From contig OY771363.1 in the NCBI GenBank assembly GCA_963674535.1, positions 177,335 to 241,334 on the forward strand: DNA of 64,000 bases, written 5' to 3'. Numbering within the stretch: the stretch's first letter is position 1; the number at the start of each line of letters is the position of its first letter. Shown here in pieces: positions 1 through 59,312 of this stretch. The notes below the pieces were generated by a model. It made no database searches. It saw only the letters and a program-made list of their open reading frames with translations, and was not told where the DNA came from. The position numbers were made by a program, and so were the translations under genes. The stretch comes from Christensenellaceae bacterium (GTDB lineage: Bacteria; Bacillota; Clostridia; Christensenellales; CAG-138).

Positions 1-2
1 GC

Positions 3-1955
3 CTTAACTGCCGCGCGTACACGAAGGAACCTGAGAGCCTCATCAAAATGAAGATGCCGTGCATAATACACTGGAGGCTTAACCATTTTATTGTTTTGGA
101 AGGTTTCCGAAACGGATATGTCTACCTGAAGGATCCGGCCGTTGGGAAGCGCAAGTTGACCATGGAGGAGTTCAGCGACGGATTCACGGGTATCGTGCTG
201 ACTTTCGAATTAACGCCGGCGTTTAAAAAAGAGAAAAAAAAGAATACGATGTGGCGGTTTATCCGCGAGCGACTGAAGGGTCAGTATTCCGTGATTTTCA
301 AGCTGTTTTACATCGGGCTTCTGCTGGTTTTTCCAGGAATCGTACTGCCGATCTTATCGCAGGTTTTCATGGACGATATTCTTGGAAACGGGTATACGGA
401 CTGGCTGACGAAGCTGCTTGTTTTTATGGGGCTTGCCGCCGTAATGAAAGTGAGCCTGACATATTATCGATATTGTCTGTTACAGAAACTGCAGAACAAG
501 ATGTCGATTCTTTCTGGTTACGGCTTTCTGCAGCATTTGTTTCGATTGCCGATTTTCTTCTTTGATCAGCGCTACGCCGGGGATATCAGCAGCCGCGTGG
601 AGGATAACACGGAAGTCAGCAAATTCCTTGCCGGGGATCTAGGCGAGACGGTGCTGCATCTTCTCGTTGCGGTTTTTTATCTGATCTTGCTGCTGCTGTA
701 CAGTCCTCAGCTTACGCTTGTCGGCCTAGGCTGCGTTGGGATCAATATCGGCATCATGCTATACAGCGCGAAACGAATCGGCGACTCGGCGATGAAACTC
801 GAGATGGATTCGGGCAAGCTTTCGGGCGTCGTATACGCAGGTATCGGCATCTCAAGCACGCTTAAAGCAGCGGGCGCAGAACATGCCTATTCCACGCGGA
901 TCATCAGCCATCAAGCGAAGGTATCCAGCCAGGAGCAGGCAATTAACAGAATTCAGCAAGTTCTGGACGCCATCCCGAACGCCGTCAGCCAGATTGCGGA
1001 CGTAATGATCCTGCTTGTCGGCGGCCTTATGGTTATGCGGGGACGGTTCACTATCGGTATGTTAGTGGCGTTTTCGTCTCTGTTCGGGTCTTTTTCGGAT
1101 CCGGTGGAGGATCTCGTCGGGTTTGTTAAAAAGATTAAATTACTGAAAACGAACATGTGCCGTGTCGAAGATATCATGCTCTACCAGCAGGACGAGACGT
1201 ATAATACCGAAAGGCCTCTCGCACCGATTAAAACGAAGCTGGCCGGAGATGTGCGCCTTGATCGGATTTCGTTCGGATACAGTCCGTATAAGGAGCCGCT
1301 GATCGAGGATTTCAGCCTGTCGATCATGAGCGGGCATTCTGTTGCGATCGTCGGACCGTCTGGTTGCGGGAAATCGACCGTATCGAAACTGATCAGCGGG
1401 TTGTATCAACCATGGTCCGGAGAAATATCGTTTGACGGTTTCGAAGCAACCACGGTGCCTGCGGAAGTCCGAAATGTCAGCGTATCGACGGTGAGCCAGA
1501 GCATAGTACTTTTCGCCGGTACAATACGTGAAAATCTTACTTTTTGGAACCCGGCGATCTTGGAATCCGACATGATTGCGGCAGCAAAGGATGCTTGCAT
1601 ACATGATATTATTATTCAGAAAGGCGGATATGATTACCGCTTGACCGAGGCTGCTTCAAACATGTCAGGCGGACAGCAGCAGAGACTGGAAATCGCGCGT
1701 GCACTAGCGACAAATCCTTCCATACTGATATTGGACGAAGCGACAAGCGCTCTGGACCCGATTGTGGAGAAACAGGTGATCGACAATATCAGACGCCGCG
1801 GCTGTACCTGCATCGTTGTTGCGCACAGGCTCAGCGCAATCCGCGATTGCGATGAAATTATTATGATGCAGCGCGGGCGCATCGTTCAGCGCGGGCGTCA
1901 CGACGAAATGGCGCATTCGAATGGCTTCTATAAAACGTTCGTTCAGAATATTTAG
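3..1955 (+). CDS. Bacteriocin/NHLM-type ABC exporter with C39 peptidase domain (peptidase-permease-ATPase); 5' end lies outside the window
   Basis: Frame 3 is open from nt 3. The first residues (IIHWRLNHFIVLEG...YLKDPAVGKRKLTMEEF) look like the C-terminal part of a C39 double-glycine peptidase domain. They are followed by a 6-TM-like region, Walker A GPSGCGKST, signature SGGQQQR and Walker B ILILDEATSALD. Confidence 0.85.
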   Translation, partial: LNCRAYTKEPESLIKMKMPCIIHWRLNHFIVLEGFRNGYVYLKDPAVGKRKLTMEEFSDGFTGIVLTFELTPAFKKEKKKNTMWRFIRERLKGQYSVIFKLFYIGLLLVFPGIVLPILSQVFMDDILGNGYTDWLTKLLVFMGLAAVMKVSLTYYRYCLLQKLQNKMSILSGYGFLQHLFRLPIFFFDQRYAGDISSRVEDNTEVSKFLAGDLGETVLHLLVAVFYLILLLLYSPQLTLVGLGCVGINIGIMLYSAKRIGDSAMKLEMDSGKLSGVVYAGIGISSTLKAAGAEHAYSTRIISHQAKVSSQEQAINRIQQVLDAIPNAVSQIADVMILLVGGLMVMRGRFTIGMLVAFSSLFGSFSDPVEDLVGFVKKIKLLKTNMCRVEDIMLYQQDETYNTERPLAPIKTKLAGDVRLDRISFGYSPYKEPLIEDFSLSIMSGHSVAIVGPSGCGKSTVSKLISGLYQPWSGEISFDGFEATTVPAEVRNVSVSTVSQSIVLFAGTIRENLTFWNPAILESDMIAAAKDACIHDIIIQKGGYDYRLTEAASNMSGGQQQRLEIARALATNPSILILDEATSALDPIVEKQVIDNIRRRGCTCIVVAHRLSAIRDCDEIIMMQRGRIVQRGRHDEMAHSNGFYKTFVQNI

Positions 1956-1967
1956 CGGGAGTAAGTT

Positions 1968-4532
1968 ATGCAGCAAAACGGACAAACACTGACATTACGG
2001 GGAGATACGACGCATATAACAAACGAGGATGCCGCTTATCGCGTAAATAAGGGTACTGTTGACGTATACATTATTCCATGGAACGACCTGCATAATCATA
2101 AATCGATTCGAATTTACAGTGTTAAACTCGGCGAGATGATCCCCTCCCTAAAATATGATGGCGATTTCAATCACAGGTCATGGCGCTTCGAATTCAAAGC
2201 TATTTCCGGCGAAGCGGAGATTTCGGTGATTCCCAATGGCAATACGCGTAAGTTGAAGAACGAATTCCTAAACAGGGCGGAAATACCGATTGACGACGCA
2301 CACAAATATGAGACGAGTCTTGTGGATTACTATATGAGACGGCGGTCCGAGGAACGCACGGCGTCGGAAAGGCAGCGTCAAAGCAGGGAAGAAGCGAAGA
2401 GAGACAACAGGAGGGTGATCCTCGACGGATTCAGCGGATCGCGTGGGCCCCAGTTTTCTGCCGACAGCTCAAACGCGATTTATAACGCGGCGAAGTATAT
2501 CTGCGCGGCCTGCCGAATCCCGATCGCCGGGATGGACACGATTCTTACCGGAGGAAACGATCTCTCACTGGAAGACGTTGCCAAAGCGTCGCGTTTCTCG
2601 TGCCGGGAAGTTACATTACAGAGCAATTGGTACAGAAACGATTGCGGGCCTTTTATCAGCAGCATGGAAGACGGTACTACGATTGCGTGCGTTCCATGCA
2701 GGTATGAGGGTTACCGATATTATAATGCCGTCACCGGCAAGGCCGGGCGCGTGACGCCCGAAATCGCGCAGAGCATATATCCGAAGGCATGGTCGATTAA
2801 TAATTCGTTTCCCGACAAATCGATGAAGGGGAAGGACCTATTTCGCTTTGGCGCCCAGAATGTCCGGCGTTTCGATATATTCATGGCCGCACTTCTTATG
2901 CTGGCGGGAACCTTGATAAGCGCGCTACTTCCCACTTTGAACCAAAAGATATATGACGACTTTATTCCTTTAGGCAGCGGGACACTGCTACTGCAGATGT
3001 GTTTTATGATCGGCTCGTTTATGATAGGGAATGTGTTCTTTTCCATTGTGAAAAACCTGTCGTTCTTCCGTGCGTCTAGCCGACTCGCATACACGATGCA
3101 GAACGCGACATATGACCGGATATTCAATCTGCCCGAGAACTTCTTCAGGCGTTTTGAAAGCGCCGATCTTGCTGTACGCGCCATGAGTATCGGACGGCTT
3201 ACCTCACAATTTACTTCGATTGTCGTTACTACGACGCTCTCAACGTTGTTCTCACTGGTCTATCTTCTGCGAATGTTCAAATACTCAGCGAAACTTACTT
3301 GGATTGCATTTTTTCTTCTGCTCGTATATTCGGCTCTCGTATACTGGATTACTTCCCGTTCGATACACTACGACCGGAAAATTCAAGAGTCCGATAACCA
3401 AGCGAATTCCATTTTCTATCAGCTAATTCGCGGAATCGACAAAATTCGGATGGCCGGTGCTGAAGATCGTTCGCAGAACGTGTATCTCCAGCCGTACATC
3501 AAATCAAGGAAGCTCGAGTTTGCAAAAGGCAAGTGGACCTATGCCGGAAACTCGCTTTCGGGCATTGTTTCGACAATCTTTTCGATGATCTTCTATTTCA
3601 TTATTATACACAAGAAATGGAATATCTCGATTGGTAGTTTTATTGCGTTCAATTCGGCATTCGGGTTGTTTTCATCGTCAGTGCTGGCCTTTGTGCAGAA
3701 CGCTATGGAGCTGAAAAGTCTTCGGCCGATCTATGAACGGTTCGCCCCGATCATTAGGGAAGCACCGGAGCATAACGAAGCAAAAGAAGTGCATCCAGCC
3801 ACGCTGAATGGAGGGATAGAACTTAGTCATGTTATGTTCGCGTACGAAAAAGACGGCGATCCGGTCATAAACGATATATCACTTAAGATCGAACCGGGCC
3901 AGTATGTTGGGATCGTAGGGCCTTCCGGATGCGGAAAGTCGACGCTTCTAAAGCTTCTGCTCGGGTTCGAAACACCTGTAAGCGGGAAAATCGCTTACAG
4001 CGGAATGGATTTAAACGCGATAGACAAACAGTCCATCCGAAAACACTTTGGCGTCGTTCTGCAAAACGGCGACTTGATTGCGGGAAGTATTTATGAGAAC
4101 ATTACGATTACAAACCCGAAAGCATCGATACAGGATGTGAACGAAATTGTGCGCGAGGTCGGGCTGCAGCCGGATATCGACGAAATGCCGATGAGACTGC
4201 AAACCATCCTGAACGAAGATGCCGGAACCATATCGGGCGGACAGAAGCAAAGAATTTTAATCGCGCGGGCACTGATCAGCAACCCTGAGATTCTGTTTTT
4301 TGACGAGGCGACAAGCGCGCTCGACAATATTACGCAGGCAAAGGTATGCGAAAGCATCCGTGCGCGCAAGAACTGCACGCGTATCGTAATCGCGCACAGG
4401 ATCAATACCATAAGATACTGCGACAGAATCATAGTCCTTGAAAACGGGCGTATCATTGAACAGGGTTCCTATGATGCGCTGATTGAGAAGAGAGGGCTAT
4501 TCTATGAATTGGCGGCTCGCCAGACGGTTTGA
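1968..4532 (+). CDS. Second ABC transporter subunit (permease + ATPase) with a ~300-aa N-terminal extension, NHLM bacteriocin-system ABC2-like
   Basis: 854 aa. Walker A GPSGCGKST, signature SGGQKQR, Walker B ILFFDEATSALD. Tandem with the C39 ABC gene, as in the TIGR03796/TIGR03797 pairs recalled from the Nif11/NHLP literature. Confidence 0.8.
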   Translation: MQQNGQTLTLRGDTTHITNEDAAYRVNKGTVDVYIIPWNDLHNHKSIRIYSVKLGEMIPSLKYDGDFNHRSWRFEFKAISGEAEISVIPNGNTRKLKNEFLNRAEIPIDDAHKYETSLVDYYMRRRSEERTASERQRQSREEAKRDNRRVILDGFSGSRGPQFSADSSNAIYNAAKYICAACRIPIAGMDTILTGGNDLSLEDVAKASRFSCREVTLQSNWYRNDCGPFISSMEDGTTIACVPCRYEGYRYYNAVTGKAGRVTPEIAQSIYPKAWSINNSFPDKSMKGKDLFRFGAQNVRRFDIFMAALLMLAGTLISALLPTLNQKIYDDFIPLGSGTLLLQMCFMIGSFMIGNVFFSIVKNLSFFRASSRLAYTMQNATYDRIFNLPENFFRRFESADLAVRAMSIGRLTSQFTSIVVTTTLSTLFSLVYLLRMFKYSAKLTWIAFFLLLVYSALVYWITSRSIHYDRKIQESDNQANSIFYQLIRGIDKIRMAGAEDRSQNVYLQPYIKSRKLEFAKGKWTYAGNSLSGIVSTIFSMIFYFIIIHKKWNISIGSFIAFNSAFGLFSSSVLAFVQNAMELKSLRPIYERFAPIIREAPEHNEAKEVHPATLNGGIELSHVMFAYEKDGDPVINDISLKIEPGQYVGIVGPSGCGKSTLLKLLLGFETPVSGKIAYSGMDLNAIDKQSIRKHFGVVLQNGDLIAGSIYENITITNPKASIQDVNEIVREVGLQPDIDEMPMRLQTILNEDAGTISGGQKQRILIARALISNPEILFFDEATSALDNITQAKVCESIRARKNCTRIVIAHRINTIRYCDRIIVLENGRIIEQGSYDALIEKRGLFYELAARQTV

Positions 4533-4553
4533 CCGACTGACGACCAGGGAGGC

Positions 4554-4925
4554 TTGAAAACGATGCACAGAGCTGTAAACGAGGATACACTCATTTTAAC
4601 CGACGAAGCGGGCGAAGAAATACTCCGCTTGAAAGAAACGCTGTCGGACGATGTATTTGAACTGACCGCCACCGGTAGAATTTTCGGCGAGGCGATGTTG
4701 GAATTGGAAGACGAGCTCATGGCCGCGGTCATTTCCGGCCGCTCAATTCTACTGGATTTTACAAACGTAGTGTCAATCAGCAGCGAAGTTCTGGATGTCA
4801 TACTGGCCGCACAGCAACGGGTTGAAAAAAACGATCGGCTGCGTTTTACACTGAGAGGCCTGCGCAAAAAGATTACAGAGTTATTTCACGATACAGGCTT
4901 TGATCAATTGATCAATATTGAATAA
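4554..4925 (+). CDS. STAS-domain protein (anti-sigma-factor-antagonist-like)
   Basis: 123 aa. The pattern LLDFTNVVSISSEVLDVIL resembles the SpoIIAA/RsbV phospho-serine loop, followed by a C-terminal helix ...LFHDTGFDQLINI. Start is uncertain (TTG 4554 or ATG 4563). Confidence 0.6.
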   Translation: MKTMHRAVNEDTLILTDEAGEEILRLKETLSDDVFELTATGRIFGEAMLELEDELMAAVISGRSILLDFTNVVSISSEVLDVILAAQQRVEKNDRLRFTLRGLRKKITELFHDTGFDQLINIE

Positions 4926-4955
4926 AATGAGCATTCGCTTTGGGGGATCGTATCA

Positions 4956-6170
4956 ATGAGAAAATTCTGCGAGGTAAATCGAAAAGAGTATTTGATTACA
5001 GGGATATTTATGCTAACCGTCGTTTCATGTCTATTTTTTATTGTCGGATGCGCGAAGATGGATCCTGTGATGGAACAGCTTCCTACGGAAAGCCGTCCGC
5101 AAGAGACAGCGTACGGCACCGCGGAAAACGAAGTGCTGGAAGACGTCATTCCTTTACAGACGGATGATAAAGCGCTGGTCGATTCCGGAACGCTCGACAG
5201 TGGCCTTGTCTGGGCGCTGTATGACAACGACGAGTGCGAAATTTCAGGTTCCGGCAGCGTTGAACGTTTTTATGACTCCTATCCGATGCGGAATTATGAA
5301 GATTCGATCAAAACACTCGTGCTTGCCGACGATGTTACGAGCGTCGGGAACAACGCTTTTCAAGGCTGTGCGAAGATCGAGAAGGTTTATATTGGCAGCG
5401 CCATTACCGAAATCGGCGAATGGGCGTTTGCTGGCTGTTCCTGTTTAACGACTATAACGATTCCAGACACCGTCACCAGCGTTGGCAGTTACGCTTTTAA
5501 CGGATGCACAGCCATGAAGAGCATTATCTTCGGCAGCGGACTGACAAGCATCGGGTACGGTACGATTCATGAATGTCCAGCATTGATAAGCGTTACCGTG
5601 CAGTCAAGCGTACCGGATCGTGCTTTTCAGGATTGTACGTCGGTTGTGAGCGTGTCGTTGGGCGATCAGGTTGAGACCATTGGCGATCATGCGTTCAGCG
5701 GTTGTACCGCGTTGGCGAATGTTTCAATGTCTGAGGGGCTTTTGCTGATTGATACCAGCGCGTTTGACGGTTGCATTGCGCTGCGCAGCATCAGCGTTCC
5801 AGACAGCGTTACGATGCTTGGTGACAGTGCGTTTGAAAAATGTACTTTACTCAGCGACGTAAAACTGGGCTGTGGCCTTACGAGCATCGGCCGTTGGGCT
5901 TTTCTGTGGTGCACTTCGCTTAAGACAATCAAAATACCCGACCAAACCAAATCGATCGGCGAAAAGGCTTTTGCGGAATGTTCGGTGCTTGAAAGCATTG
6001 CGCTACCGAAAGGCCTGACAACACTGGCATATGGTATTTTCCTGAACGATTCCGCGTTGCATACGATCCATTATACAGGTACACAGGCTGAATGGGAGAG
6101 AATAAAAAAAGAGAAATGTTGGAAAGACGGAATCGACTCTATAGCAATGCAATATGAGTCAAACGGATAA
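4956..6170 (+). CDS. BspA-type leucine-rich-repeat (LRR_5) lipoprotein
   Basis: Signal peptide with lipobox FFIVGC. Repeated units of the form xxIGxxAFxGCxxLxxIxIPxxVTSIG throughout the protein. Confidence 0.8.
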   Translation: MRKFCEVNRKEYLITGIFMLTVVSCLFFIVGCAKMDPVMEQLPTESRPQETAYGTAENEVLEDVIPLQTDDKALVDSGTLDSGLVWALYDNDECEISGSGSVERFYDSYPMRNYEDSIKTLVLADDVTSVGNNAFQGCAKIEKVYIGSAITEIGEWAFAGCSCLTTITIPDTVTSVGSYAFNGCTAMKSIIFGSGLTSIGYGTIHECPALISVTVQSSVPDRAFQDCTSVVSVSLGDQVETIGDHAFSGCTALANVSMSEGLLLIDTSAFDGCIALRSISVPDSVTMLGDSAFEKCTLLSDVKLGCGLTSIGRWAFLWCTSLKTIKIPDQTKSIGEKAFAECSVLESIALPKGLTTLAYGIFLNDSALHTIHYTGTQAEWERIKKEKCWKDGIDSIAMQYESNG

Positions 6171-6217
6171 CGCGTTCTACGGTTTGTGAAAAATTCGGTG
6201 ACTATGGAGCAAACAAT

Positions 6218-8632
6218 ATGAAACGGAATATGTTGCCATACGAAGGAAACGAATCATACATCTTTGTGAGCTATTGCCATAAAGACAGGGATTTCGTTTT
6301 TCCGATCATAGAAGAACTGCAGAAATGTGGCTGCCGCATCTGGTTCGACCGGGGTATTAATCCCGGAAATGACTGGCCGGATGTGATTGCCGAACATCTT
6401 AAAGAGTGTGAAATATTCATACCGTTTTTATCTGAACAATCCGTCTCGTCGCATAATTGCAGGAGAGAATGGAACTATGCAGTTGCGGAGAATAAGCCTA
6501 CGGTTCCAGTATTCATTGAACAAGTGATGCCTACGCCGGCGATGAAGATGCAACTGGCTTCTTTGCAGGCGCTTATCGCGTATGAGTTTGACTCGAAGGA
6601 CTCGTGCGCAAAAAAGCTATTCAGTCTACCTATGCTGAAAAAATGCCTTGAAGAACCGGCCGTCGTGTCAGCTAGCTGTCGAGTGACATATTTTGCGGAA
6701 GACGGGGAAACAATTATTCAATCCGGCGCATATGAGCAGGGTTCCATCGTCCGAGAGCCGGCTCCTCCAGATAAGGAATCCGATGAAAACAACACATATA
6801 CGTTTGCCGGGTGGAAGCTGCTGGATGGGACGGCCCTGAAAGACGACGGCGTATGCGTGGACAGCGCTTCCTATGCTGCAACATACAACGAAACACCCCG
6901 AAAATCGGGCGATGGTATATGCGTGGACAACGCTTCTTATGCGGCAACATGCAACACAATACCGCAGAAATCGGTGGAGCAGGGTTCTGATGAGATTGAA
7001 TCACGCACGGAGATAACCAATGCTTCGCTGATCCCGGATGACAAAACGAGGCCGATCGTTTCCATCGGGATGAAACCTGTATTAATCGGTCACAATTCCG
7101 CAGTTTGCGATTATGTGCTTGACGCGCCACTGATTAGCCATGAACACGCATTGATCCGTTGTGACGGATTTACCTGCTACCTAAAAGACAACAGCAGCGG
7201 AAACGCTACGTTTGTCAATGGAGAACGTATTGCGCCGGACGTTGAAGAACAGGTTTATCATGACGATATCATCGTTTTTGGCGGCGAGAAATTCCAGCTG
7301 GAGATTCCGAAAAACCCGAAAACGCGAAACGCGAAAGACTACAGGGTTACTTTCTATTCCGACGATGGGTTCACGCTGATCGCCGAAGGAAATTATCATT
7401 TGGGCGACATCGTTAAGCTGCCGACTGCGCCCGCAAAAAGCATGGATGAGGTTTATCGCTATACGTTTTTAGAATGGAAGCTGCTGAGCGGCACCGCGTT
7501 GAGTAAAGGGAATGTCTGCGCCGGCGAAACGAGCTATACGGCGATATATTCAAAAGAAAAGATTGCGTATACGGTCGGGTATTTTAACGAGAACGGGACG
7601 AAGGCGATATCCAGCGCGCAATATCACTACGGGGATAGGATCAATGAACCCGCCGCTCCCGAAAAAAAAGCCGATGCGGAGTACCAATATACATTTGCCG
7701 GATGGACGCTTTTTAATGGGAAAAATCCAGGCTCGGGAAACGTTTGCCTGGGGGGCGCGACATTCCGAGCAACATATAAGAAAGCAACTCGGGAGTACAG
7801 GATTACGTATTATGCAGAAGACGGCGTAACCGTGATTTCCAGCGGCATGTACCGCCGGGGCGATGTGATCAAGCCGCCCACAAATCCGCCCGGGACCATG
7901 CTTTCCGAATTTGATGGATGGAAGCTGGTAGGTGGAACGGCCTTAAAGAACGGGAAAATCTGTGACGGGAACGCCGAATACAAAGCCGAATATAGGGAAA
8001 GCAGAACGGTAACCGCAAGCGGGTTCCTGGTTCGTATGAAAACAAAAGAAGTGATCCCAATCCTAAAAGAACTCCTGCTGGGCAGCAGTCCCCGCACGGG
8101 CGGCTACGCGATATCAAGCGCAAAAGGGATTTGTGCAGAGCATGCGAAAATTGTAGGACGCGGCTTTCAGTACTTTCTTTTCAATCTCAGCGACTCGAAT
8201 GCAACGCACGTAAACCAAACGCGCATTGCGGGTGGCGAGGAGGTTCGGGTTTACCACAACGACACAATCACGCTGGGCGAAGAGGATTTCCGCCTGATTA
8301 CTAACGATAAGATAAAACGCCCGCAGAAAGTAACGGAAAAGAAGATGGCGTACCTTCTGCTGACAGACATCGGCTTGAAAATAAGGATCGATCATACGCC
8401 TTTCGAACTCGGGCGAAGCTATCAGGAGATTTGGACCAGCCTAAAGGTCGGTCGCCAGCACGCGACGATCATTATTAAGGGTGAAGAATATTATCTAGCA
8501 GACTTTCCGCCATATTCGAAAAATGGTATTTTTCTAAAAGGAGACTTGCTAGAAAGATCGGTTGAGTATCTGCTCCATCCGGGAGATCAGATTCGAGTTG
8601 CTGATGTTAGTTGTAAATTTTTAGTCGAGTAG
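6218..8632 (+). CDS. Multidomain TIR - Listeria/Bacteroides (InlB B-type) repeats - three FHA domains; no signal peptide or TM segment
   Basis: The N-terminus YIFVSYCHKDRDFVFPII...RIWFD...SEQSVSSHNCRREWNYA fits TIR_2. There are three FHA-like blocks: GHNSAVCDYVL..ISHEHALI...NGERI; LLGSSPRTGGYAI...AEHAKIV...NQTRI; FELGRSYQ...GRQHATII. Repeats carrying YTFAGWKL / YTFLEWKL / YTFAGWTL / FDGWKL lie between them. Confidence 0.8.
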   Translation: MKRNMLPYEGNESYIFVSYCHKDRDFVFPIIEELQKCGCRIWFDRGINPGNDWPDVIAEHLKECEIFIPFLSEQSVSSHNCRREWNYAVAENKPTVPVFIEQVMPTPAMKMQLASLQALIAYEFDSKDSCAKKLFSLPMLKKCLEEPAVVSASCRVTYFAEDGETIIQSGAYEQGSIVREPAPPDKESDENNTYTFAGWKLLDGTALKDDGVCVDSASYAATYNETPRKSGDGICVDNASYAATCNTIPQKSVEQGSDEIESRTEITNASLIPDDKTRPIVSIGMKPVLIGHNSAVCDYVLDAPLISHEHALIRCDGFTCYLKDNSSGNATFVNGERIAPDVEEQVYHDDIIVFGGEKFQLEIPKNPKTRNAKDYRVTFYSDDGFTLIAEGNYHLGDIVKLPTAPAKSMDEVYRYTFLEWKLLSGTALSKGNVCAGETSYTAIYSKEKIAYTVGYFNENGTKAISSAQYHYGDRINEPAAPEKKADAEYQYTFAGWTLFNGKNPGSGNVCLGGATFRATYKKATREYRITYYAEDGVTVISSGMYRRGDVIKPPTNPPGTMLSEFDGWKLVGGTALKNGKICDGNAEYKAEYRESRTVTASGFLVRMKTKEVIPILKELLLGSSPRTGGYAISSAKGICAEHAKIVGRGFQYFLFNLSDSNATHVNQTRIAGGEEVRVYHNDTITLGEEDFRLITNDKIKRPQKVTEKKMAYLLLTDIGLKIRIDHTPFELGRSYQEIWTSLKVGRQHATIIIKGEEYYLADFPPYSKNGIFLKGDLLERSVEYLLHPGDQIRVADVSCKFLVE

Positions 8633-9190
8633 AAATAAATCACTTAATAATTGTTATAGTTTTGTCTTTAACGTGTATAAGTAAACGTAGACATTAAAGC
8701 GCTCGTGGAAGCAAAGGAAAAGAATATGGCGCCGACAACGGACGAACGACCGCTATACGGACAAAGAAAGATTGTGCCGCGTGATGCGATGAAAAGACAT
8801 CAACAGGAGAGTGGTTATGGGCATGATTACGGAATTAAAGCTACTCGAGCAACCAAAAGACGGAATATTCTGAAGGCAGCTTGACAGGAAGCGAATTTCG
8901 AAGCGCTTTGCAAGCTCCTACAGGGAATCGGCGCCGTTGTTATCGCTAAAGAATCATAAGAGAGCAGGAGCAGGATTTGGTTGGCGAGCTCAGCGAGAAA
9001 GCATTTGACGAAGACACCAGTAGAGGCAACGACTGTATAAGAGGGGGGGATGAAAATGCTTTGAAAACCAATACAATAAAGATCCGGTAGTGGCGAAAAG
9101 ACTAAAGATCCGTCAGACAAATGAATATAACGGCGGGTAAATTAACAAAAAGCACATCCGTATTACAAAAAAGCGTTATGGAGGTATCAA

Positions 9191-9523
9191 GTGGATAAGT
9201 TGGAAAGATTACAAGAACTTTTACAGCAACAAAATGCAAACGACATTTTTGTTGGGACTTTGGAAGAAACTCAAAAGCGACTTAAAGAAAAGGGATTAGA
9301 TTTCTCTGTTGAGGAGCTTCGTGTACTCGCAGAAGGTGTGCTAGATTCACAATTAGCAAGCAAATCTGAATTGAGTGAAAGCGACTTGGAACTCGTTACA
9401 GGTGGCAAAAATCGCTATACTGGCGTAAATAGAGACATGTATGAAATTGGTTATATATTAGGAAAAACCGCGCGAGACGTACTTGGTTGGGCGAAAAAAC
9501 TCGGAGCGATATTTGGTTTTTAA
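9191..9523 (+). CDS. Nif11-like leader peptide precursor 1 (double-glycine cleavage, 38-aa cationic core)
   Basis: GGAGG lies 5 nt upstream of the GTG start. The leader ...KGLDFSVEELRVL...SELSESDLELVTGG matches the Nif11/N11P leader pattern ending in GG. The core KNRYTGVNRDMYEIGYILGKTARDVLGWAKKLGAIFGF has no Cys. Confidence 0.75.
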   Translation: MDKLERLQELLQQQNANDIFVGTLEETQKRLKEKGLDFSVEELRVLAEGVLDSQLASKSELSESDLELVTGGKNRYTGVNRDMYEIGYILGKTARDVLGWAKKLGAIFGF

Positions 9524-9537
9524 CGGAGGAAGGCAGA

Positions 9538-9849
9538 ATGGAATACGAAAAGTTACAGCAGGTCGCAGAGATGATACAAGATACTGCGATTGCAGCATCA
9601 TTTAAAGGCATATCGATCGAAGACGCTGTGAAGCTTTTTTCGAAAAAGGGAATTGAGATTACAAAAGAAGACCTGTACGAAATTAGACACATGGCCGAAA
9701 CGAACGAGAAGATGTCAGATGAATTATCGGAAATCGAGCTTGATGTAGTTACGGGTGGTGGATTTAGCCTTCGTGATTGGTGGAGAAAATATAGGGGCGC
9801 CTATAAAGCAGCCTTTGAAGGTTTCTTTAATGGCCTTGTTGGGATGTAG
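9538..9849 (+). CDS. Nif11-like leader peptide precursor 2 (double-glycine cleavage, 29-aa core)
   Basis: A GGAGGA RBS precedes ATG 9538. Leader ...KKGIEITKEDLYEI...MSDELSEIELDVVTGG; core GFSLRDWWRKYRGAYKAAFEGFFNGLVGM. The ORF-track start at 9487 overlaps precursor 1 and is less likely. Confidence 0.75.
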   Translation: MEYEKLQQVAEMIQDTAIAASFKGISIEDAVKLFSKKGIEITKEDLYEIRHMAETNEKMSDELSEIELDVVTGGGFSLRDWWRKYRGAYKAAFEGFFNGLVGM

Positions 9850-9985
9850 TTAGCGATAATTCAGAACAAGTTGATGTTTTGGTATTTAACACTCCACTTT
9901 ATGTTTTAGAGAAAGGTTTGTTACAGACAACGATGAGGCAGGGCACGTGAGTTGCCCTGCCAGATGAAAATCAGCCGGTGGGAAT

Positions 9986-10198
9986 ATGGATCGAACAAAA
10001 CAAGTTGAAAAATTATTAAAGTTATTTGCCGATATGCAGGACCTCTTTGATCCGAAAGATGAACTGTCATCAATTATAGCAGAGCTCGGCGGCCGTTCGG
10101 AAGGAGAACTGTCCGATGATGAACTCGATTTAGTTATTGCTGCAGCGAAAGATCCCCGGATGGCTTCTAATATTAGGAACAGGAAAAAGGGAACATGA
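9986..10198 (+). CDS. Leader-like small peptide 3 (acidic ELSDDELDLV motif but no GG), stop overlapping the PP2C start
   Basis: 70 aa. ...GELSDDELDLVIAAAKDPRMASNIRNRKKGT. Its TGA (10196-10198) overlaps ATG 10195 of the next gene. Confidence 0.45.
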   Translation: MDRTKQVEKLLKLFADMQDLFDPKDELSSIIAELGGRSEGELSDDELDLVIAAAKDPRMASNIRNRKKGT

Positions 10199-10974
10199 TA
10201 CTGCAAGCTTGCGTTTATACGCACGTTGGCCGCTGCAGAATGAATAACGAAGATAATTACTATCTTTGTGGAGCCATTAAGCGGGATTTGGAATTGCCGG
10301 CCGAACGAAAGGATGATATGCGGTCGGCAAATTCCGGTGCGTTGTATGCGGTATGCGACGGCATAGGCGGAGAAGAGATGGGAGAAGCAGCTTCCTTGGC
10401 CGCCGTTTCGGCATTAAGAATAGCGACGGAGCCAGATCCGTACCCGGCGGCGAGACAAAACACACACGATGCTAACAATGCAGTATGGAGCCTTACAACC
10501 GCGCGGGGATATGGACGCGCCGGAACGACGATTGCCGCTTTAAGCGTCAACGCAAGCTCGGTGCTTGCCTACAATGTCGGCGACAGCCGGATATATCGGT
10601 ATCATAAACAGACGCTGACACAACTGTCAAAAGATCATACTGCAACGCAGCAGATGGTTGATCTTGGGATCATTACTGAACAAGAAGCGAAGGTTCACCG
10701 CGACAGAAACAAACTGATGTTATATCTGGGGCTGCCTTCGGAGGAGATGGTGCTGGAACCGTATATTTCAGAGACTATCCCACTGCAACCGGACGATGTT
10801 TACATCCTATGTTCCGACGGACTGTTTACAATGGTCTCTGATGAAAGTATTGCGGAGCTCGTTTCAAAAAGCGGAACGGTTGACCAGATCTGCACGGTAT
10901 TAGTGGACGAAACGCTTCTCAATGGCGCCAAAGACAACGTTACCGTTCTTGTTGTGAAAGTCGTTGAGGATTAA
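10195..10974 (+). CDS. PP2C-family Ser/Thr protein phosphatase
   Basis: Motifs NEDNYY, YAVCDGIGGEEMGEAAS, LCSDGL and DNVTVLVV are typical of PPM/PP2C (Stp-like) enzymes. Confidence 0.9.
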   Translation: MILQACVYTHVGRCRMNNEDNYYLCGAIKRDLELPAERKDDMRSANSGALYAVCDGIGGEEMGEAASLAAVSALRIATEPDPYPAARQNTHDANNAVWSLTTARGYGRAGTTIAALSVNASSVLAYNVGDSRIYRYHKQTLTQLSKDHTATQQMVDLGIITEQEAKVHRDRNKLMLYLGLPSEEMVLEPYISETIPLQPDDVYILCSDGLFTMVSDESIAELVSKSGTVDQICTVLVDETLLNGAKDNVTVLVVKVVED

Positions 10975-11684
10975 TTATCCTAGCACATCCGACTAAGCGC
11001 AGAATGTTGACAGCAACAATCAAATAAAAAATCACTCTGAATTACAAAACATCAGATAATCTTTGTGTCCGGATCTTAACGTTTAGTGAGGCACTGGTGC
11101 GATAGCCTGATGCGACAACAGTATGAGCTGACTATGCAGCGACGGATAGATAATTTGCTCGGGCGACTGGAAGCCGTTGGTAAAGAACTCGCATATCTAT
11201 TGAAAGCAGGTACGAACGGTGCTCTGCGACTAAGAAGCTATATGAAATGCAATTTGTCTGCACCCAAGCGATTAGTACGGGTGCAGATTTTTATGTAAAC
11301 TGGGTGACCGAAACAATATTGGCGGATCCCAGATTTCCGAGAAAAGCTTTGCATGAGTGAAATATGAGTACTGATTATGGACTTTGTATCTGATAAACAA
11401 TAAAATGGAGAGAGATTCAGGATGTTGACGATGTTGGGTACTTTCAGCAGGGAATGCGCTGCCATTCTCCTAGACAAATCGCTAAAGAATGGGCTTGCTA
11501 AGCGTTGAGAACAATCAAGGCAGGCTACGTCCAAACAAAGTCGATAACGGGCTTATATGCGGGACAAGAAATAAGAAGTTACATTGCGATTATTTAAAAA
11601 GGGTACTTGATATTCCACTGTGAGGAAATTATCATTGCTCAGAACTATAATCATGATGTAATAGTCATCAACAGGGAGGGATAA

Positions 11685-14072
11685 ATGGACATCATTGATT
11701 TTGAACCGCTTTTTAGCGATTGGACGGTTGACTCATTTATTGGGGCGGGTTCGTTTGGTAAAGTATATAAGATAAAACGCGAGGAATTTGGCACGGTTTA
11801 TTACTCAGCGTTGAAGTGGATTTCGATTCCAAAGGACGATACGGAACTAAAACAATTGCGTTATGACGGGATGGATAATGAATCGATTTCGGAGTATTAC
11901 ACAAACCTGGTTAAGGACCTATCAAACGAGTTAAAGCTAATGAGAAGCCTTAGGGGGCGCAGTAGCATTGTCAGCTACGAAGATCACAGGATTATAGCAA
12001 AACCGGATCGGAAGGGTTATGATATTTTGATCCGCATGGAGTTACTTACGAGCCTAAACGACTATATGCTTAGCCATGCGCTATCGCGCGCGGAGTTGAT
12101 TCGGCTTGGCATTAATATTTGTGAAGCGCTGGAACTTTGCCAGAGATATAATATTATCCATCGAGATGTCAAGCCAGACAATGTCTTTGTTACTGAGATT
12201 GGGGACTTCAAACTTGGCGATTTTGGCATTGCGCGACAGCTAGAAGGAACGATGTCGGGTCTTTCGATAAAAGGGACGTACGATTATATGGCACCTGAGG
12301 TGTACAAAAGAGAACGGTACAGTTCGAGTATCGACGTCTACTCTCTCGGAATTCTGATTTATCGATTGCTGAATGATGGACGGTTGCCATTCTTGCCCCT
12401 TGCTCAAGCAACGATCCGCCCGAGCGACCGCGATCAGAGCTTTGCTAGACGAATGAGCGGAGAAGCGATGCCGCCACCGCGGAATGCAGAAGGGCGACTA
12501 GGTGAAATCGTGCTGAAAGCGTGCGCTTATGACCCGAAAGATCGGTACTCCAGTCCGAAGCAGATGCGGGAGGAATTACAATCGATACAGTTTACACCGG
12601 AAGAGGCTCGGATGATCTTTCGAGACGGGGACGATCTCGGCCATGTTGAACCCAGCGTAAGAGAGACCGAAACGGAGCAAGTAGCTCAAGAAGTGGAAGT
12701 GACGGATAGCTTCGGGTATATGGCTGAGACGTACTCGCAAGAGACTCAGGATAAAATAGAGAGCGGAGAAGAAGTAGAACATGAAGATATTGATAAAACA
12801 AAGACAAGCCCAGAGAAGAAAGCACTGCTCGCTAGGATTATTGTGGCTATAGCAATTGTTGGATTAGCTGTAGTATGCGCATGTTTATATGGCCGTGTTG
12901 TTAAAATTAGTATAAACGCAACCAGTTATGATATGGAAGTTGGTAGCTCCCAAGTGCTGTTAACTAGTGTAACACGCTTTTTAAAAGGAACGCAATATGA
13001 ATCTGTTCAATGGGCATATGATGAGAGTGTTGTGTCTCTTGACGGGGATGGAACTTTTACTGCAATCGGCGAAGGCGAGGCACTAATTGAAGCTCATCTT
13101 GATAATGTGAAAGCTTCTTGCACTATAAGTGCACAATACCCTACAATTACTCTTGGCACAACGAGTTTTAAAACGAATTCAACCGAATTGGATTTATCCG
13201 ATCAGGGAATCACAGACATTTCCCCGCTCTCCGAATGCCGCTGCCTTACCAGTTTGGATCTTTCACGCAACCCAATAACTAGTTTAGAACCTCTACAGTA
13301 TGTATCAACTCTTGAATATCTGAATATAAACGAAACTCAAGTTGTCAACCTTGAACCGCTCGGATCCCTAAAACAGCTCAAAAGCGTTGATATACGCGAC
13401 ACTCAAATCCCTGACTTATCCCCACTTAGCGATGATGTAAATGTGAACATGAATATGAATCTTATTAAGCGCGTCAACTTAGATTTTGATGATTTTTATA
13501 GCCTAAGCGAAGAAGATTTTGGGGTTAATTTTGGTGGCCGCCAAATCACTTGGACGAGCTTTGATACAACGGTTGCATGGTGTGAAAATGGTGATATTGG
13601 AACTACGAGTATCCAAAGGGATATTACAAAATCTATGTTACGAACATTCATTACAGGTTCGGTTGAAAATACAAATACACTATTAATGTATATTATACAT
13701 ATACCATGCGAGACATACTCATTTAAACAAGGCAATGAAACCCACTTTCCCGATAATTGGATTGCTTGGCCCCAAATAATCTCTCCCAAAATAGAGAACT
13801 GCTATGGCTTTGCGATTACAATAAATAGTAGTAAGGAGCATGCTGTTCAATATTCATCAGATTGGTATATTTATATTAAAGATGATGAAGGATGGGAAAG
13901 AATATTTACGATATATATAGAAGAAGGCGTCGAAAACAGTACAAATATTAAATTTGATGCTCCTTTGAACATCTTAGAAATCGCACTTGTTCCAAAGGGA
14001 AATAAACTGAATGGAGACACAACTTGGTATAATTATATTACACTGTCAGATTTAGTCTTCGCAAGAAATTAG
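11685..14072 (+). CDS. Hanks-type Ser/Thr protein kinase with one TM helix and an extracellular Big_2-like + LRR + unknown C-terminal region
   Basis: GAGSFGKVYK, ALK, HRDVKPDN, DFG and APE motifs. TM helix LLARIIVAIAIVGLAVVCACLY near aa 385. LRR units are DLSDQGITDISPLSECRCLTSLDLSRNPITSLEPL... The last ~200 aa were not recognised. Confidence 0.9.
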   Translation: MDIIDFEPLFSDWTVDSFIGAGSFGKVYKIKREEFGTVYYSALKWISIPKDDTELKQLRYDGMDNESISEYYTNLVKDLSNELKLMRSLRGRSSIVSYEDHRIIAKPDRKGYDILIRMELLTSLNDYMLSHALSRAELIRLGINICEALELCQRYNIIHRDVKPDNVFVTEIGDFKLGDFGIARQLEGTMSGLSIKGTYDYMAPEVYKRERYSSSIDVYSLGILIYRLLNDGRLPFLPLAQATIRPSDRDQSFARRMSGEAMPPPRNAEGRLGEIVLKACAYDPKDRYSSPKQMREELQSIQFTPEEARMIFRDGDDLGHVEPSVRETETEQVAQEVEVTDSFGYMAETYSQETQDKIESGEEVEHEDIDKTKTSPEKKALLARIIVAIAIVGLAVVCACLYGRVVKISINATSYDMEVGSSQVLLTSVTRFLKGTQYESVQWAYDESVVSLDGDGTFTAIGEGEALIEAHLDNVKASCTISAQYPTITLGTTSFKTNSTELDLSDQGITDISPLSECRCLTSLDLSRNPITSLEPLQYVSTLEYLNINETQVVNLEPLGSLKQLKSVDIRDTQIPDLSPLSDDVNVNMNMNLIKRVNLDFDDFYSLSEEDFGVNFGGRQITWTSFDTTVAWCENGDIGTTSIQRDITKSMLRTFITGSVENTNTLLMYIIHIPCETYSFKQGNETHFPDNWIAWPQIISPKIENCYGFAITINSSKEHAVQYSSDWYIYIKDDEGWERIFTIYIEEGVENSTNIKFDAPLNILEIALVPKGNKLNGDTTWYNYITLSDLVFARN

Positions 14073-14115: not shown

Positions 14116-14455
14116 TGTCAACAGTAAGTCGGACAGATTTTATAAGGTACGGGATCTCTTAAACTCTACTGGTGACAAATATCCAAGCGTTCCGTGTAGG
14201 CGAATGTTGTTGAACCAATGAACATAATCTGACAGCTCCAGTTGGAGATGCTCCAACGTTTCAAAACGACGAGAGAAGACAAACTCAGCCTTGACCATTT
14301 TGAAAGTAGAGTCCGCCACGGCGTTATCGAATGGACAGCCTTTCATAACAACCCAATCAACGAGCATTCCGATACAGCGTACAGCTTGAGCAGTGGCGTA
14401 TCGCTCTGTCATGCGTGCCGCAGCAAACGTCATCCGAAGAAGGACGGATACCATT
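14116..14455 (-). pseudogene. IS3-family transposase OrfB 3' fragment with terminal inverted repeat (truncated)
   Basis: The minus-strand translation ...KGCPFDNAVADSTFKMVKAEF...NNIRLHGTLGYLSPVEFKR is the conserved C-terminus of IS3 OrfB. The TGTCAAC... terminus is at 14116. Homology stops where element copy A begins. Confidence 0.7.
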
Positions 14456-15322
14456 GCCCCCCGGTCAAGGTGAACGCGGAGGCAAGCTTGACGACTAGGG
14501 GCCTTAGCCTCTTCCAAGTGTGCGCGGCGAAAAAGGAGGGGGGGCGCAAATACTCGACAAAATGGCGCCCCAAGACGAGAACTTCAAAGTCGAAGAAACC
14601 CGCATAAACAGGGCGTTTTTTAAATCTTTGAAGTATAAATATTGAGAAGAAAAACCGGGAGTTTTTGCGGGGTCGCGACGCTTTTTGGAAGCTACAAATA
14701 TCGAGAAAATTGATCGATTTTTCAGCAATATAACAAGCCATATGAAAACCATAACGAACCACACGGCAGTAGTGTGGTTTTTTATTATTTTTCCCATCGG
14801 AGTAAAAGGTGAGATATTGAGAACTCGCATGATTTTTCAAGCCATAATTGACCAAACCATACCGTAAGGAAACCATAGTGAGTCTTTGGTGACTGAGCGG
14901 CTCGTCATGGTTTTTCTGGTTTCCTCAATACGAATATGATTAAACTTTTCTATTCGCTCTTCAGGTCGGATCATACTTGCACGAAAAACCAAGAGTCACA
15001 CTGGGAAATTCACGTCAAATCCAGGCGTTTAGGTCCAAGTGAATACAATCCCTCACGCAGCATTATTGAATGGTCTTTATAAGATTTTTCACATAGTGAC
15101 CTTATGTTGAATTGCGTTGAATCGCTGTGCGAATCTTTGCTTATCAAATTTAAGGTTATAGGCTCCTAAAAGATGTCCGCTTTTGTCCTCTTTTTCGTTG
15201 TGGAATGTGTAGACGCGAACATGTGTTTGTAATAACATATCAATATGGAACACAACAACAACCGTTCTGTAGTTGAATGATCTCACGCAGACAAAGGAAC
15301 GTGAGCAAAAGGAGGACTGTAT

Positions 15323-15502: not shown

Positions 15503-15559
15503 TAGAGTGGCGTCTGCAACATGACTTGATACAGTGCAGGGGTGATCGGGTGAAAAAGT

Positions 15560-16413: not shown

Positions 16414-16502
16414 TGTTCCGATAAACATCTGAAATCGGACTTGATTGTCGGTTCGATAAGAGCGAACATGCTGAATGACGTAAGAAGGGAGGATGCAAAA
16501 AC

Positions 16503-20121: not shown

Positions 20122-22118
<1,997 letters not shown>

Positions 22119-22131
22119 GAGCCAAATAATC

Positions 22132-42544: not shown

Positions 42545-42561
42545 GAAAGATGTATGCCTCC

Positions 42562-59281: not shown

Positions 59282-59312
59282 CAAATTGTCTATAAAATAG
59301 TTGAAGTCCCCA

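Follow-up and report, generated by a model that had tools for sequence, protein, structure and literature searches.

The DNA analysed here is a 64-kb window on contig OY771363.1 of a Christensenellaceae bacterium, to which all coordinates refer. Its first part (bases 1-14072) holds a gene cluster that combines an exporter for double-glycine peptides, peptide precursor genes and a set of signalling genes. A survey of the open reading frames (ORFs) of this part yielded eleven genes, all on the + strand, and no sizeable gene on the opposite strand. Domains were assigned by Pfam and NCBIfam profile searches of the window proteins. Both analyses bore out a first-pass annotation that had given eleven genes on one strand together with their order and domains. 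When related loci are compared, it becomes clear that bases 1-14072 represent the right-hand portion of a ~17-20-kb cluster that is conserved in gut and rumen Clostridia. Apparently, this cluster is a bacteriocin locus with a conserved, undescribed regulatory module.

The first gene (3..1955, + strand) encodes an NHLP-type C39-ABC exporter subunit with Peptidase_C39, ABC_membrane and ABC_tran domains. Its reading frame is open to the window edge, and its 5' end lies beyond it; ~60 residues at the N-terminus are off-window, the catalytic Cys among them. The TIGR03796 match of this N-terminally incomplete protein (821.8 bits, cut-off 853.3) covers model positions 60-709. The orthologue in the closely related locus L063 is complete (713 aa) and carries Peptidase_C39. 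The second ABC subunit, ABC2 (1968..4532, +), scores 737.5 bits against TIGR03797, above the cut-off of 709.4, with residues 169-852 covered. Visual inspection of the sequence and of the TIGR03797 alignment suggests that residues ~169-300 of ABC2 resemble a degenerate C39 domain. The TIGR03797 core is preceded by an extra N-terminal domain of ~155 residues (residues 1-155, ~1968-2432), to which we return below. The gene for the HlyD adaptor lies outside the window; in L063 and 12 other loci it stands directly 5' of the C39-ABC gene, and the HlyD of L006 reaches 156.2 bits against TIGR03794, exactly at the cut-off.

Three signalling or surface proteins are encoded downstream of the exporter. 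The STAS protein (4554..4925, +; 123 aa) matches Pfam STAS, with an E-value of 3e-7, and STAS_2, and carries a family-specific N-terminal extension of ~20 aa; its TIGR00377 score of 29.1 bits is below the 53.45 cut-off. It is followed by a BspA-type surface lipoprotein (4956..6170, +) with LRR_5 repeats (E 4.5e-64) and, by eye, a signal peptide and a lipobox-like FFIVGC. The third gene (6218..8632, +) specifies a cytoplasmic protein of 804 aa, termed TIR-FHA, which is composed of a TIR domain, Flg_new repeats and three FHA domains (Pfam TIR_2, Flg_new and FHA). The TIR domain occupies residues 1-145 and the FHA domains residues ~283-355, 621-700 and 718-800; neither a transmembrane (TM) segment nor a signal peptide was seen by eye. 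About five Flg_new (Listeria-Bacteroides) repeats lie between the FHA domains although the protein has no signal peptide or TM segment. Such repeats normally occur on surface proteins, and they are absent from shorter TIR-FHA relatives (255-590 aa).

All relatives examined retain the TIR motif SHNC[RK]xE with its Glu; in the window protein it reads SHNCRRE, with Glu84. The motif aligns with the Glu region of the NAD-cleaving TIR domain of Cat1 (PDB 9mud). Given the conserved catalytic Glu, NADase activity is plausible from the sequence. The FHA domains of the relatives are canonical (GR...SxxH...NG), and the window protein matches the TIGR03354 VI_FHA profile weakly (61 bits, cut-off 120). The motif [DE]x(1-2)T[IVL] is enriched, with 46 occurrences observed versus 18.8 +/- 4.1 in shuffles. 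Acidic 'DDxKT[IVL]' motifs cluster in the linkers just N-terminal of the first FHA domain and are, judged by their sequence, candidate phospho-acceptors.

A Ser/Thr phosphatase of the PP2C type (10195..10974, +) and a receptor Hanks-type Ser/Thr kinase (11685..14072, +) complete the signalling set of the window. The phosphatase was recovered with the Pfam models PP2C, PP2C_2 and SpoIIE. Its best match is Stp1/IreP-like, and its score against NCBIfam Stp1_PP2C (168.8 bits) is below the equivalog cut-off. In the kinase, the Pkinase domain (E 4e-38) with its HRDVKPDN, DFG and APE motifs is followed by a single TM segment (~residues 378-405) and an extracellular C-terminal region of Big_2-like, LRR_4 and unknown sequence. 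The Big_2/LRR ectodomain predicted at first pass was thus recovered in its LRR_4 part (E 2.7e-14), whereas Big_2 stayed sub-threshold (E 0.002). In relatives, kinases with other ectodomains occupy the same position; across loci LRR, RCC1, C-type lectin/fn3 and DUF6273 types occur, and several loci carry two or three kinases. Therefore, sensing of an external cue fits at least as well as sensing of a peptide. In L004, LRR_5 repeats are fused to the kinase ectodomain, which ties the LRR lipoprotein to kinase sensing.

Between TIR-FHA and the phosphatase gene lie three small genes, each preceded by a good ribosome-binding site. The first, pep1 (9191..9523, +), starts with GTG, 6 nt after a GGAGG, and encodes a precursor of 110 aa with a long acidic leader ending in ELVTGG and a cationic, amphipathic/aromatic core of 38 aa. 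The second, pep2 (9538..9849, +), has an ATG start, likewise preceded by GGAGG, and specifies a precursor of 103 aa, whose long acidic leader ends in DVVTGG and whose core of 29 aa is rich in Trp, Gly and Phe. Both leaders are Nif11-like, and the pattern at their ends can be given as ELxxVTGG. Against the Nif11-type leader profile TIGR03798, with its cut-off of 32.3 bits, pep1 (15.8 bits, E 0.012) and pep2 (23.6 bits, E 4.6e-5) score below threshold; the homologous peptides of relatives reach 32.1 and 27.5 bits. The leaders are homologous to Gly-Gly (GG) peptides of eight other loci, pep1 to those in L014, L054, L055, L057, L058 and L060, and pep2 to those in L006, L014, L054, L057, L058 and L061.

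The third gene, pep3 (9986..10198, +), encodes a leader-like small protein of 70 aa, and its stop codon overlaps the start of the PP2C gene (ATGA). The first-pass annotation had counted three leader-type peptides. This holds for the GG leaders of pep1 and pep2, whereas pep3 represents a separate conserved family without Gly-Gly: a leader-like part, 'ELSDDELDLVIAAA', ends in Ala-Ala and is followed by a basic tail of 16 aa. The family motif is '...ELSxDDLDxVxAA' and a short tail; neither TIGR03798 nor any other NCBIfam or Pfam family matched. Homologues of pep3 are encoded in L005, L006, L008, L055, L057, L060, L061, L062 and L063, and none was found in L002, L004, L014, L054 and L058. Between window and L063, unrelated peptide genes and spacers are inserted between the conserved TIR-FHA and pep3-PP2C blocks, as is expected for a bacteriocin cargo slot. 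If any of the peptides signals, pep3 is a better candidate than the bacteriocin-like pep1 and pep2. The idea that pep3 is an exported FlgM-like anti-sigma factor was considered and set aside; it is pure speculation, and pep3 is not universal.

Neither a RiPP-modifying enzyme nor a two-component pair nor a recognisable immunity gene was detected in the first 14 kb with Pfam, NCBIfam and defence models. The corresponding statement of the first-pass annotation holds for this part; elsewhere in the window, a hybrid histidine kinase is encoded at 59301..62189. In two relatives, modifying enzymes are found at the peptide genes: YcaO and radical SAM proteins beside the GG peptides in L014 (17251-20109), and a radical SAM/SPASM protein adjoining them in L060 (1807-3711). 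Therefore, one exporter and sigma factor framework serves modified as well as apparently unmodified peptides.

To place the locus in a wider context, a TIR-FHA alignment was scanned against one genome per species, and the loci retrieved were annotated by comparing the window proteins with six-frame ORFs. Many of these loci stem from metagenome-assembled genomes (MAGs), and several are near-duplicates. The species scan gave 51 loci, nearly all from MAGs of gut or rumen Clostridia, of which 8 combine TIR with FHA and 43 have the TIR domain without FHA. All 8 TIR+FHA loci adjoin STAS, PP2C, kinase, sigma factor or exporter genes. By comparison, the 43 loci with the same TIR subfamily but no FHA, which served as controls, have no STAS or PP2C neighbour in any case (0/43). 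Altogether, we assembled 18 TIR-FHA loci from ~12 independent lineages, with TIR-FHA identities down to 25-27% and widely varying GC content. STAS stands next to TIR-FHA in 17/18 loci; the TIGR03796/03797 ABC pair is nearby in 14/18, PP2C, a Hanks kinase and an extracytoplasmic function (ECF) sigma factor in 13/18 each, and the LRR_5 lipoprotein in 11/18.

Gene order is the same as in the window in L001, a relative with 90% identity. At the other extreme, the GC-rich L002 (27% identity) carries sigma, HlyD, C39-ABC, ABC2, STAS, TIR-FHA, LRR protein, GG peptide, PP2C and kinase genes. L003 comprises STAS, TIR-FHA, PP2C and kinase. Elsewhere the order is permuted, with STAS-TIR-FHA-PP2C-kinase-sigma-HlyD-ABC in L004 and sigma-peptides-HlyD-ABC-ABC2-pep3-STAS-TIR-FHA-PP2C-kinase in L006. 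This argues for selection for co-location rather than for descent of one arrangement. The locus L063 shares 94% DNA identity with window positions 1-8631 and continues leftward beyond them. As its C39-ABC gene is preceded by genes for a kinase, an ECF sigma factor and HlyD, in this order, sigma and HlyD genes presumably lie just left of the window as well.

A reciprocal test started from the exporter. Six ABC2 homologues with the N-terminal domain were picked solely by the length of available sequence. In 5/6 loci sigma, HlyD, C39-ABC, ABC2, STAS, TIR-FHA, LRR_5 lipoprotein and peptide genes were found, with STAS and TIR-FHA directly downstream, and PP2C and kinase(s) were present in 4 of those 5. 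The first-pass annotation had read the two 'cassettes' of the window, peptides with exporter and kinase with TIR-FHA, as one unit. The gene-neighbourhood check upholds this, as TIR-FHA adjoins kinase, PP2C or peptide genes in nearly every examinable locus, in rearranged order. From these data we conclude with high confidence that the genes form one functional unit.

The family is not rare. When 1.8 billion representative proteins were searched with a profile, at least 150 clusters (50% identity) of TIR-FHA proteins were returned with E <= 1e-69, and most of the listed representatives align from TIR through the FHA domains. In a word-indexed search few close TIR-FHA homologues were retrieved. 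Likewise, more than 120 ABC2 clusters (90% identity) align across the full 854 residues at 42-53% identity; one ABC2 variant occurs on 19 contigs, and both contigs examined are from gut metagenomes. A plasmid collection contained no TIR-FHA homologue beyond a generic mycobacterial TIR.

The extra N-terminal domain of ABC2 is genetically tied to the signalling genes. In a confident AF2 model (pLDDT 84), this domain consists of a beta-barrel and, after it, a long helix. Its top Foldseek matches are all ligand-binding domains of the CRP/FNR/PrfA/PKG/Bd1971 type, albeit weak (E ~1e-3, TM 0.3-0.4). We therefore call it a predicted CRP-like ligand-binding fold and assign no ligand to it. A PDB sequence search with the N-domain profile gave chance-level matches only. 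Used alone in a word-indexed search the domain found no match, and it was retrieved via the full-length ABC2 search. It is duplicated in the ABC2 proteins P0031 and P0132. In L003 and L039, both of which lack a transporter, it forms a stand-alone gene just before STAS, TIR-FHA, PP2C and kinase. That the N-domain persists beside these genes without a transporter hints, more strongly than any other observation, at communication between the signalling module and the exporter via this domain.

A second link is provided by the sigma factor and a promoter motif. The sigma factor of the cluster is of the plain ECF type, and the HlyD adaptor gene always comes next after its gene. A motif first noticed upstream of peptide genes, TGTAAC-N15/16-GTGTAT, has, with at most one mismatch allowed, 19 sites in 341 kb of system loci versus 4 in 588 kb of the TIR-only controls, and the sites in system loci are nearly all intergenic. 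It has the classical form of an ECF promoter, with 'AAC' at -35 and 'CGT/GTAT' at -10. It lies directly upstream of GG-peptide genes in L001, L002, L006, L014, L054, L058, L060, L061 and L063, and directly upstream of pep3 genes in L008, L060, L061 and L062; in L004, L005, L061 and L062 it precedes STAS or PP2C/kinase operons. The best counterpart in the window, a candidate ECF-sigma promoter for a pep1-pep2-pep3-PP2C unit, is TGTTAT-N15-GTGTAT (8652..8678, +), located 20 nt past the TIR-FHA stop codon. L001 and L063 show the same element after the TIR-FHA stop with one mismatch, ~60 nt before a peptide gene.

Two long spacers set the window copy apart: TIR-FHA is followed by a gap of 558 bp, and the kinase gene is preceded by one of 710 bp. 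The latter is unique to the source genome; PP2C and kinase genes of relatives are 12-60 bp apart. Neither spacer resembles the L055 locus, and an Rfam search of the first 16 kb found no RNA family in them. A sigma-70-like promoter candidate, TTGATA-17-TATCAT (11607..11635, +; 10/12 consensus positions), lies 50 nt upstream of the kinase gene, although the generic promoter/terminator scan was overall not enriched versus shuffles and has little weight. Between pep2 and pep3 (~9937-9962) a stable GC-rich hairpin of 9-10 bp without U-tract was detected; the folding z-score of the whole region is -2.4. The hairpin could stabilise or attenuate the mRNA and so separate the highly expressed peptide genes from pep3-PP2C. 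In view of degenerate FHA residues, the imperfect promoter, the 558-bp leader, the 710-bp spacer and the downstream IS3 fragment and integrase module, the window copy may be partly decayed or rewired.

The exporter and peptide genes recall a known export system. The NHLP/Nif11-type (N11P) export cassette comprises a TIGR03794 HlyD, a TIGR03796 C39-ABC and a TIGR03797 ABC protein (Haft et al. 2010, PMC2887384). Our cluster shares the same three-gene transporter family, the long Nif11-like leaders ending in GG, the hypervariable cores and the presence of several paralogues per locus. From these sequence features, exporter and peptides appear to belong, or nearly belong, to the NHLP/N11P family. 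Unlike those cassettes, the cluster of the window has no TOMM or lanthipeptide enzyme, and its ABC2 carries the extra CRP-like N-domain. Moreover, the set of ECF sigma, STAS, TIR-FHA, PP2C, Hanks kinase and LRR lipoprotein is unmentioned in the description of the NHLP/N11P cassettes, which reports only a large Ser/Thr kinase beside Burkholderia TOMM clusters (PMC2887384).

Parts of this set recall other regulatory systems. Type VI secretion is controlled by threonine phosphorylation, in which the kinase PpkA, the PP2C phosphatase PppA, Fha1 and the lipoprotein/ABC sensor TagQRST take part. As in this pathway, a Hanks kinase, a PP2C and an FHA protein are encoded together with an antibacterial export machine, and a surface lipoprotein is a likely co-sensor. 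In contrast, the machine in our case is an ABC peptide exporter in Gram-positives, FHA is fused to TIR, and STAS, ECF sigma and a promoter regulon are included. Neither the window nor any related locus yielded structural genes for type VI secretion. The resemblance thus lies in the working logic, not in membership. The 'three-component' systems Blp, Com and Pln place class II bacteriocins under the control of peptide pheromones. Like them, the cluster has a C39-ABC protein that exports and cleaves double-glycine peptides, several bacteriocin genes under one regulator, and in pep3 a possible pheromone. Unlike in these systems, Hanks kinase, FHA-TIR and ECF sigma would do the signalling, and no histidine kinase or LytTR response regulator is encoded in the first 14 kb or the related clusters.

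The combination as such appears to be undescribed. The first-pass annotation knew of no described system with this composition, and a search of the full-text literature, with subscription journals outside its coverage, likewise returned no publication on TIR-FHA proteins or this cluster. A paper on the reclassification of ECF sigma factors and a survey of conflict systems contain no description of it.

From these comparisons, it is reasonable to propose that the cluster makes small, probably unmodified double-glycine (Nif11-leader) bacteriocin-like peptides and exports them via HlyD, C39-ABC and ABC2. The Hanks kinase(s), BspA-LRR lipoprotein, PP2C, TIR-FHA, STAS, pep3 and the ECF sigma factor left of the window look like the regulatory set. 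On balance we favour the view that they constitute a dedicated phospho-signalling module regulating bacteriocin expression and export, and we hold this reading as a whole with moderate confidence. The ECF sigma, the promoter motif and the CRP-like domain of ABC2 speak for a regulator rather than a defence TIR effector.

We envisage the following sequence of events. The kinase, possibly together with the LRR lipoprotein, would sense an extracellular cue and phosphorylate threonines, the likely targets being itself and the 'DDxKT[IVL]' linkers of TIR-FHA. FHA domains would bind the phosphothreonines and thereby alter the assembly state of TIR-FHA and STAS. The ECF sigma could then be released or activated and transcribe the peptides, pep3 and the PP2C/signalling genes from TGTAAC-N15-GTGTAT promoters, a pairing of sigma and promoter that we infer; induction of PP2C would give negative feedback. 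In parallel, the module may act on the CRP-like N-domain of ABC2, whose presence and genetic linkage are established, and so gate export. In the least certain step, the TIR domain, given its conserved catalytic Glu, is probably an NAD-consuming enzyme or signal generator in the relay rather than a suicide effector.

Bacteriocin release thus seems to be under the control of a signalling pathway that is immune-like. One could go further and assume a full counterpart of innate immunity, in which pattern-type receptors, namely kinases with LRR, lectin, RCC1 or DUF6273 ectodomains and the LRR lipoprotein, signal to FHA-TIR through threonine phosphorylation, an NAD-derived messenger is formed by the TIR domain, and the CRP-like domain and/or STAS relay it to the ECF regulon and peptide export. 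We consider this extended version doubtful, and the prospect that the TIR step makes the system categorically new stands a minority chance.

Several observations weigh against the proposed phospho-signalling module. All support for it consists of synteny, motifs and predicted folds. The structural matches of the ABC2 N-domain are weak (TM 0.3-0.4), and the cNMP-binding Arg is not conserved. Each of the three FHA domains of the window lacks one canonical phosphate-binding residue. The promoter candidate of the window has two mismatches, which is chance level within the window, and lies 510 nt upstream of pep1. Not all loci have the full set either. L060 possesses sigma, promoters, exporter, peptides, pep3 and the radical-SAM gene but no STAS or TIR-FHA; ~0.7 kb beyond its ABC2 gene, after a 63-aa ORF, an IS200-type transposase gene occupies the expected place of STAS. 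L008, L014 and L057 show no PP2C or kinase within 10 kb. Conversely, L003, L039 and L042 harbour TIR-FHA/PP2C/kinase modules without a nearby exporter, so that the module may have its own output.

The way in which the sigma factor would be controlled raises further objections. Partner-switching modules are known from RsbV/RsbW/RsbU, SpoIIAA/AB/E and the Bordetella system BtrS-BtrU/W/V, which controls type III secretion. Our cluster resembles them in that STAS, PP2C and an alternative (ECF) sigma factor are encoded together. It differs, however, in lacking a GHKL kinase of the RsbW type, and its PP2C is Stp1-like rather than RsbU/SpoIIE-like. No RsbW/SpoIIAB-type HATPase_c protein was detected in the first 14 kb or in the clusters of relatives. 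Moreover, the position of the phospho-acceptor Ser58 of SpoIIAA is Ser in only 7/14 STAS sequences, the window's among them; the remaining 7 have Ala, Gly or Asn there. We therefore do not count the cluster as a canonical partner switch, as RsbW is absent and the phospho-Ser is variable. A precedent for the action of Hanks kinases on STAS proteins is PknD, which phosphorylates the anti-anti-sigma factor homologue Rv0516c (PMC1847690).

A recognisable anti-sigma gene is likewise missing from the clusters. HlyD was considered for this role and rejected, because by eye its cytoplasmic N-terminus comprises only ~25 residues. Ser/Thr kinases are known to control ECF sigma factors in the pairs EcfP/PknT (ECF43) and EcfK/PknS, the latter linked to type VI secretion, and ECF43 sigmas lack the acidic DAED motif and need phosphorylation (PMC8999054). 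The parallel is apparent: in both cases an ECF sigma without recognisable anti-sigma is encoded near Hanks kinases, and EcfK controls an antibacterial secretion system. Unlike ECF43 members, the cluster sigmas keep the DAED motif of region 2.2 ([DE]AED[LI]) in 11/13 loci; the window's own sigma gene lies off-window. Direct phospho-activation of the EcfP type is therefore not indicated.

Among the alternatives, autoinduction by pep3 survives best. According to this model, pep3 is cleaved at Ala-Ala(-Gly) and exported by C39-ABC, and its tail of 10-20 aa is sensed by the kinase ectodomain or the LRR lipoprotein, with kinase, FHA and sigma replacing the histidine kinase and response regulator. 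We regard it as possible, albeit rather unlikely; it is compatible with the phospho-signalling module proposed above. The conservation of the family in 10 loci, the double-glycine-like leader and the lack of a two-component system in the cluster are in its favour. In L008, L060, L061 and L062 the promoter motif directly before pep3 would provide positive feedback, and several tails are amphipathic with a Lys-rich end, e.g. NYAKFLEKLNKDK and SYEQFAAKYLGKK. In this they resemble the competence and bacteriocin pheromones of streptococci. On the other hand, the cleavage motif is AA, AAG, AAR or AAL and not GG, the distribution of pep3 is patchy, as it was not found in the five loci named above, and the window tail, KDPRMASNIRNRKKGT, is short and hydrophilic. 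Furthermore, different species share part of the tail sequence, which is unlike the rapid divergence usual for pheromones, and kinase ectodomains change between loci without an obvious matching change in pep3.

The first-pass annotation had assigned the TIR domain the role of an effector. The corresponding scenario is a kinase-gated TIR NADase for defence or abortive infection, possibly with a secreted peptide, sensed by the LRR kinase, as signal, in which phosphorylation would switch on NAD+ depletion and the bacteriocin cassette is a co-regulated or co-inherited weapon. The strict conservation of the catalytic Glu, aligned to the NADase-type Cat1, agrees with it, as do the stand-alone TIR-FHA/PP2C/kinase modules without exporters (L003, L039, L042). 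The cluster also adjoins integrase and insertion sequence (IS) remnants, and a CRISPR-Cas locus is present within the window. The TIR domain is weakly matched by ThsB, retron-TIR and Thoeris III models (E 1e-4 to 1e-5; ~20 bits for the PADLOC ThsB models, 15.9 bits versus a cut-off of 220 for NCBIfam Thoeris III ThcB4). However, these defence matches are generic and restricted to the TIR core. With Thoeris ThsB, Cat1 and AbTir the domain has the TIR fold and the catalytic Glu at the same motif position in common. Unlike in those NADase systems, it is fused to FHA and resides in a bacteriocin/sigma cluster, in which no ThsA-like partner (SIR2/SLOG or equivalent), SAVED or CARF partner and no other partner effector was found. 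By its sequence, the TIR domain of TIR-FHA is thus not a Thoeris member. The tight, order-independent linkage to ECF sigma, promoters, exporter and the regulatory domain of the exporter points to regulation, not suicide. In addition, the extracellular kinase ectodomains are ill-placed for detecting intracellular phage components, and several loci have two to three different kinases. Consequently, the effector role put forward at first pass gives way to a regulatory one, and we judge the defence scenario to be unlikely.

Even less probable, in our view, is a function in self-protection, whereby the module, instead of controlling production, would detect envelope attack by a foreign or the own bacteriocin and induce immunity, with the LRR lipoprotein acting in a LanI-like manner. 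The type VI secretion kinase pathway does respond to envelope attack. In the first 14 kb no recognisable immunity gene was detected, no conserved surface protein other than the LRR lipoprotein (11 loci) is present, and in L057 a CPBP/Rce1-like gene, of a type often tied to immunity, stands beside the peptides. Yet the promoter motif fronts bacteriocin-like peptide genes, which places production within the regulon, and the LRR_5-kinase fusion of L004 suggests a sensing role. Finally, a chance adjacency of an NHLP bacteriocin cassette and a kinase/FHA/TIR cassette, which the long gaps of the window (558 and 710 bp) and the possible separate kinase promoter might suggest, is effectively refuted by co-occurrence in ~12 independent lineages with rearranged order, by the module in 5/6 loci of the reciprocal ABC2 test, by its association in 0/43 control loci and by the promoter motif shared between both halves.

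A phospho-signalling module of this kind matters for several reasons. Among the dominant commensals of the gut are Lachnospiraceae, Oscillospiraceae and related Clostridia, about whose bacteriocin regulation next to nothing has been established. The cluster is common, and through its defined sigma factor, promoter motif and kinase input bacteriocin production could be turned on. It represents a concrete case of Hanks-kinase/FHA signalling that would control an ABC peptide exporter and an ECF sigma without anti-sigma. Its TIR domain, moreover, looks catalytically intact and is found in a regulatory setting linked to secretion, not in phage defence. If the TIR product is a messenger, the known roles of bacterial TIR domains would be widened. 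Should the innate-immunity-like reading be true, it would represent new, non-defence and non-suicidal TIR signalling, and thus a bacterial counterpart of the logic that leads from receptor kinases and TIR to antimicrobial peptides.

The same TIR subfamily was also met in another architecture. In the 43 non-FHA loci, an N-terminal cytoplasmic TIR domain is typically joined to one TM segment and an extracellular domain (for example in L007, L009-L013, L015-L038 and others; proteins P0003, P0006 and P0016). Where the extracellular part is of the BspA-type LRR_5 kind (L024, L025, L044, L050, L053), the topology in these gut Clostridia is like that of Toll-like receptors. The TIR-TM genes often occur as tandem pairs (L009, L021, L025, L041, L044), and genes for STAS, PP2C or a kinase are absent from their neighbourhood.

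The L057 cluster is flanked on both sides by further gene sets (1-6100 and 18900-22550). One flank comprises TerD, vWA-TerF and FHA-TPR genes, the other PRTase_2/TRSP, StiP, PELOTA_1 and C-C_Bond_Lyase genes, which belong to the Ter-associated biosynthesis set. A DUF7005 gene lies beside PP2C and kinase in L058 (15979-16806) and L062 (15712-16572), and after the peptides in L057.

In the window, the right-hand boundary of the cluster is marked by a truncated IS3-family transposase fragment (rve_2/rve_3; 14140-14517, - strand) right after the kinase gene and by a strong bidirectional terminator-like hairpin (14756-14780) that likewise follows it. A module encoding an unknown protein of 227 aa together with a tyrosine integrase that has a helix-turn-helix (HTH) insert is present in two copies, 14457-17840 and 51659-56814, which share two blocks of 94% and 99.6% identity. 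The second copy is split by a 1.76-kb segment encoding a DnaB-like helicase (53451-54683). The copies bracket sugar-utilisation, CRISPR and cas genes. A large CRISPR array (~35720-40630; repeat GGATCACCCCCGCGCGTGCGGGGAATAG, 61-nt period, on the order of 80 spacers) accounts for a GC-rich, ORF-free stretch. Type I-E cas genes extend beside it over 40669-51496, including Cse1 (45600-47210) and Cas3 (47203-49935), together with a WYL-domain regulator (50411-51496). A Mutator-family transposase is encoded at 33394-34647.

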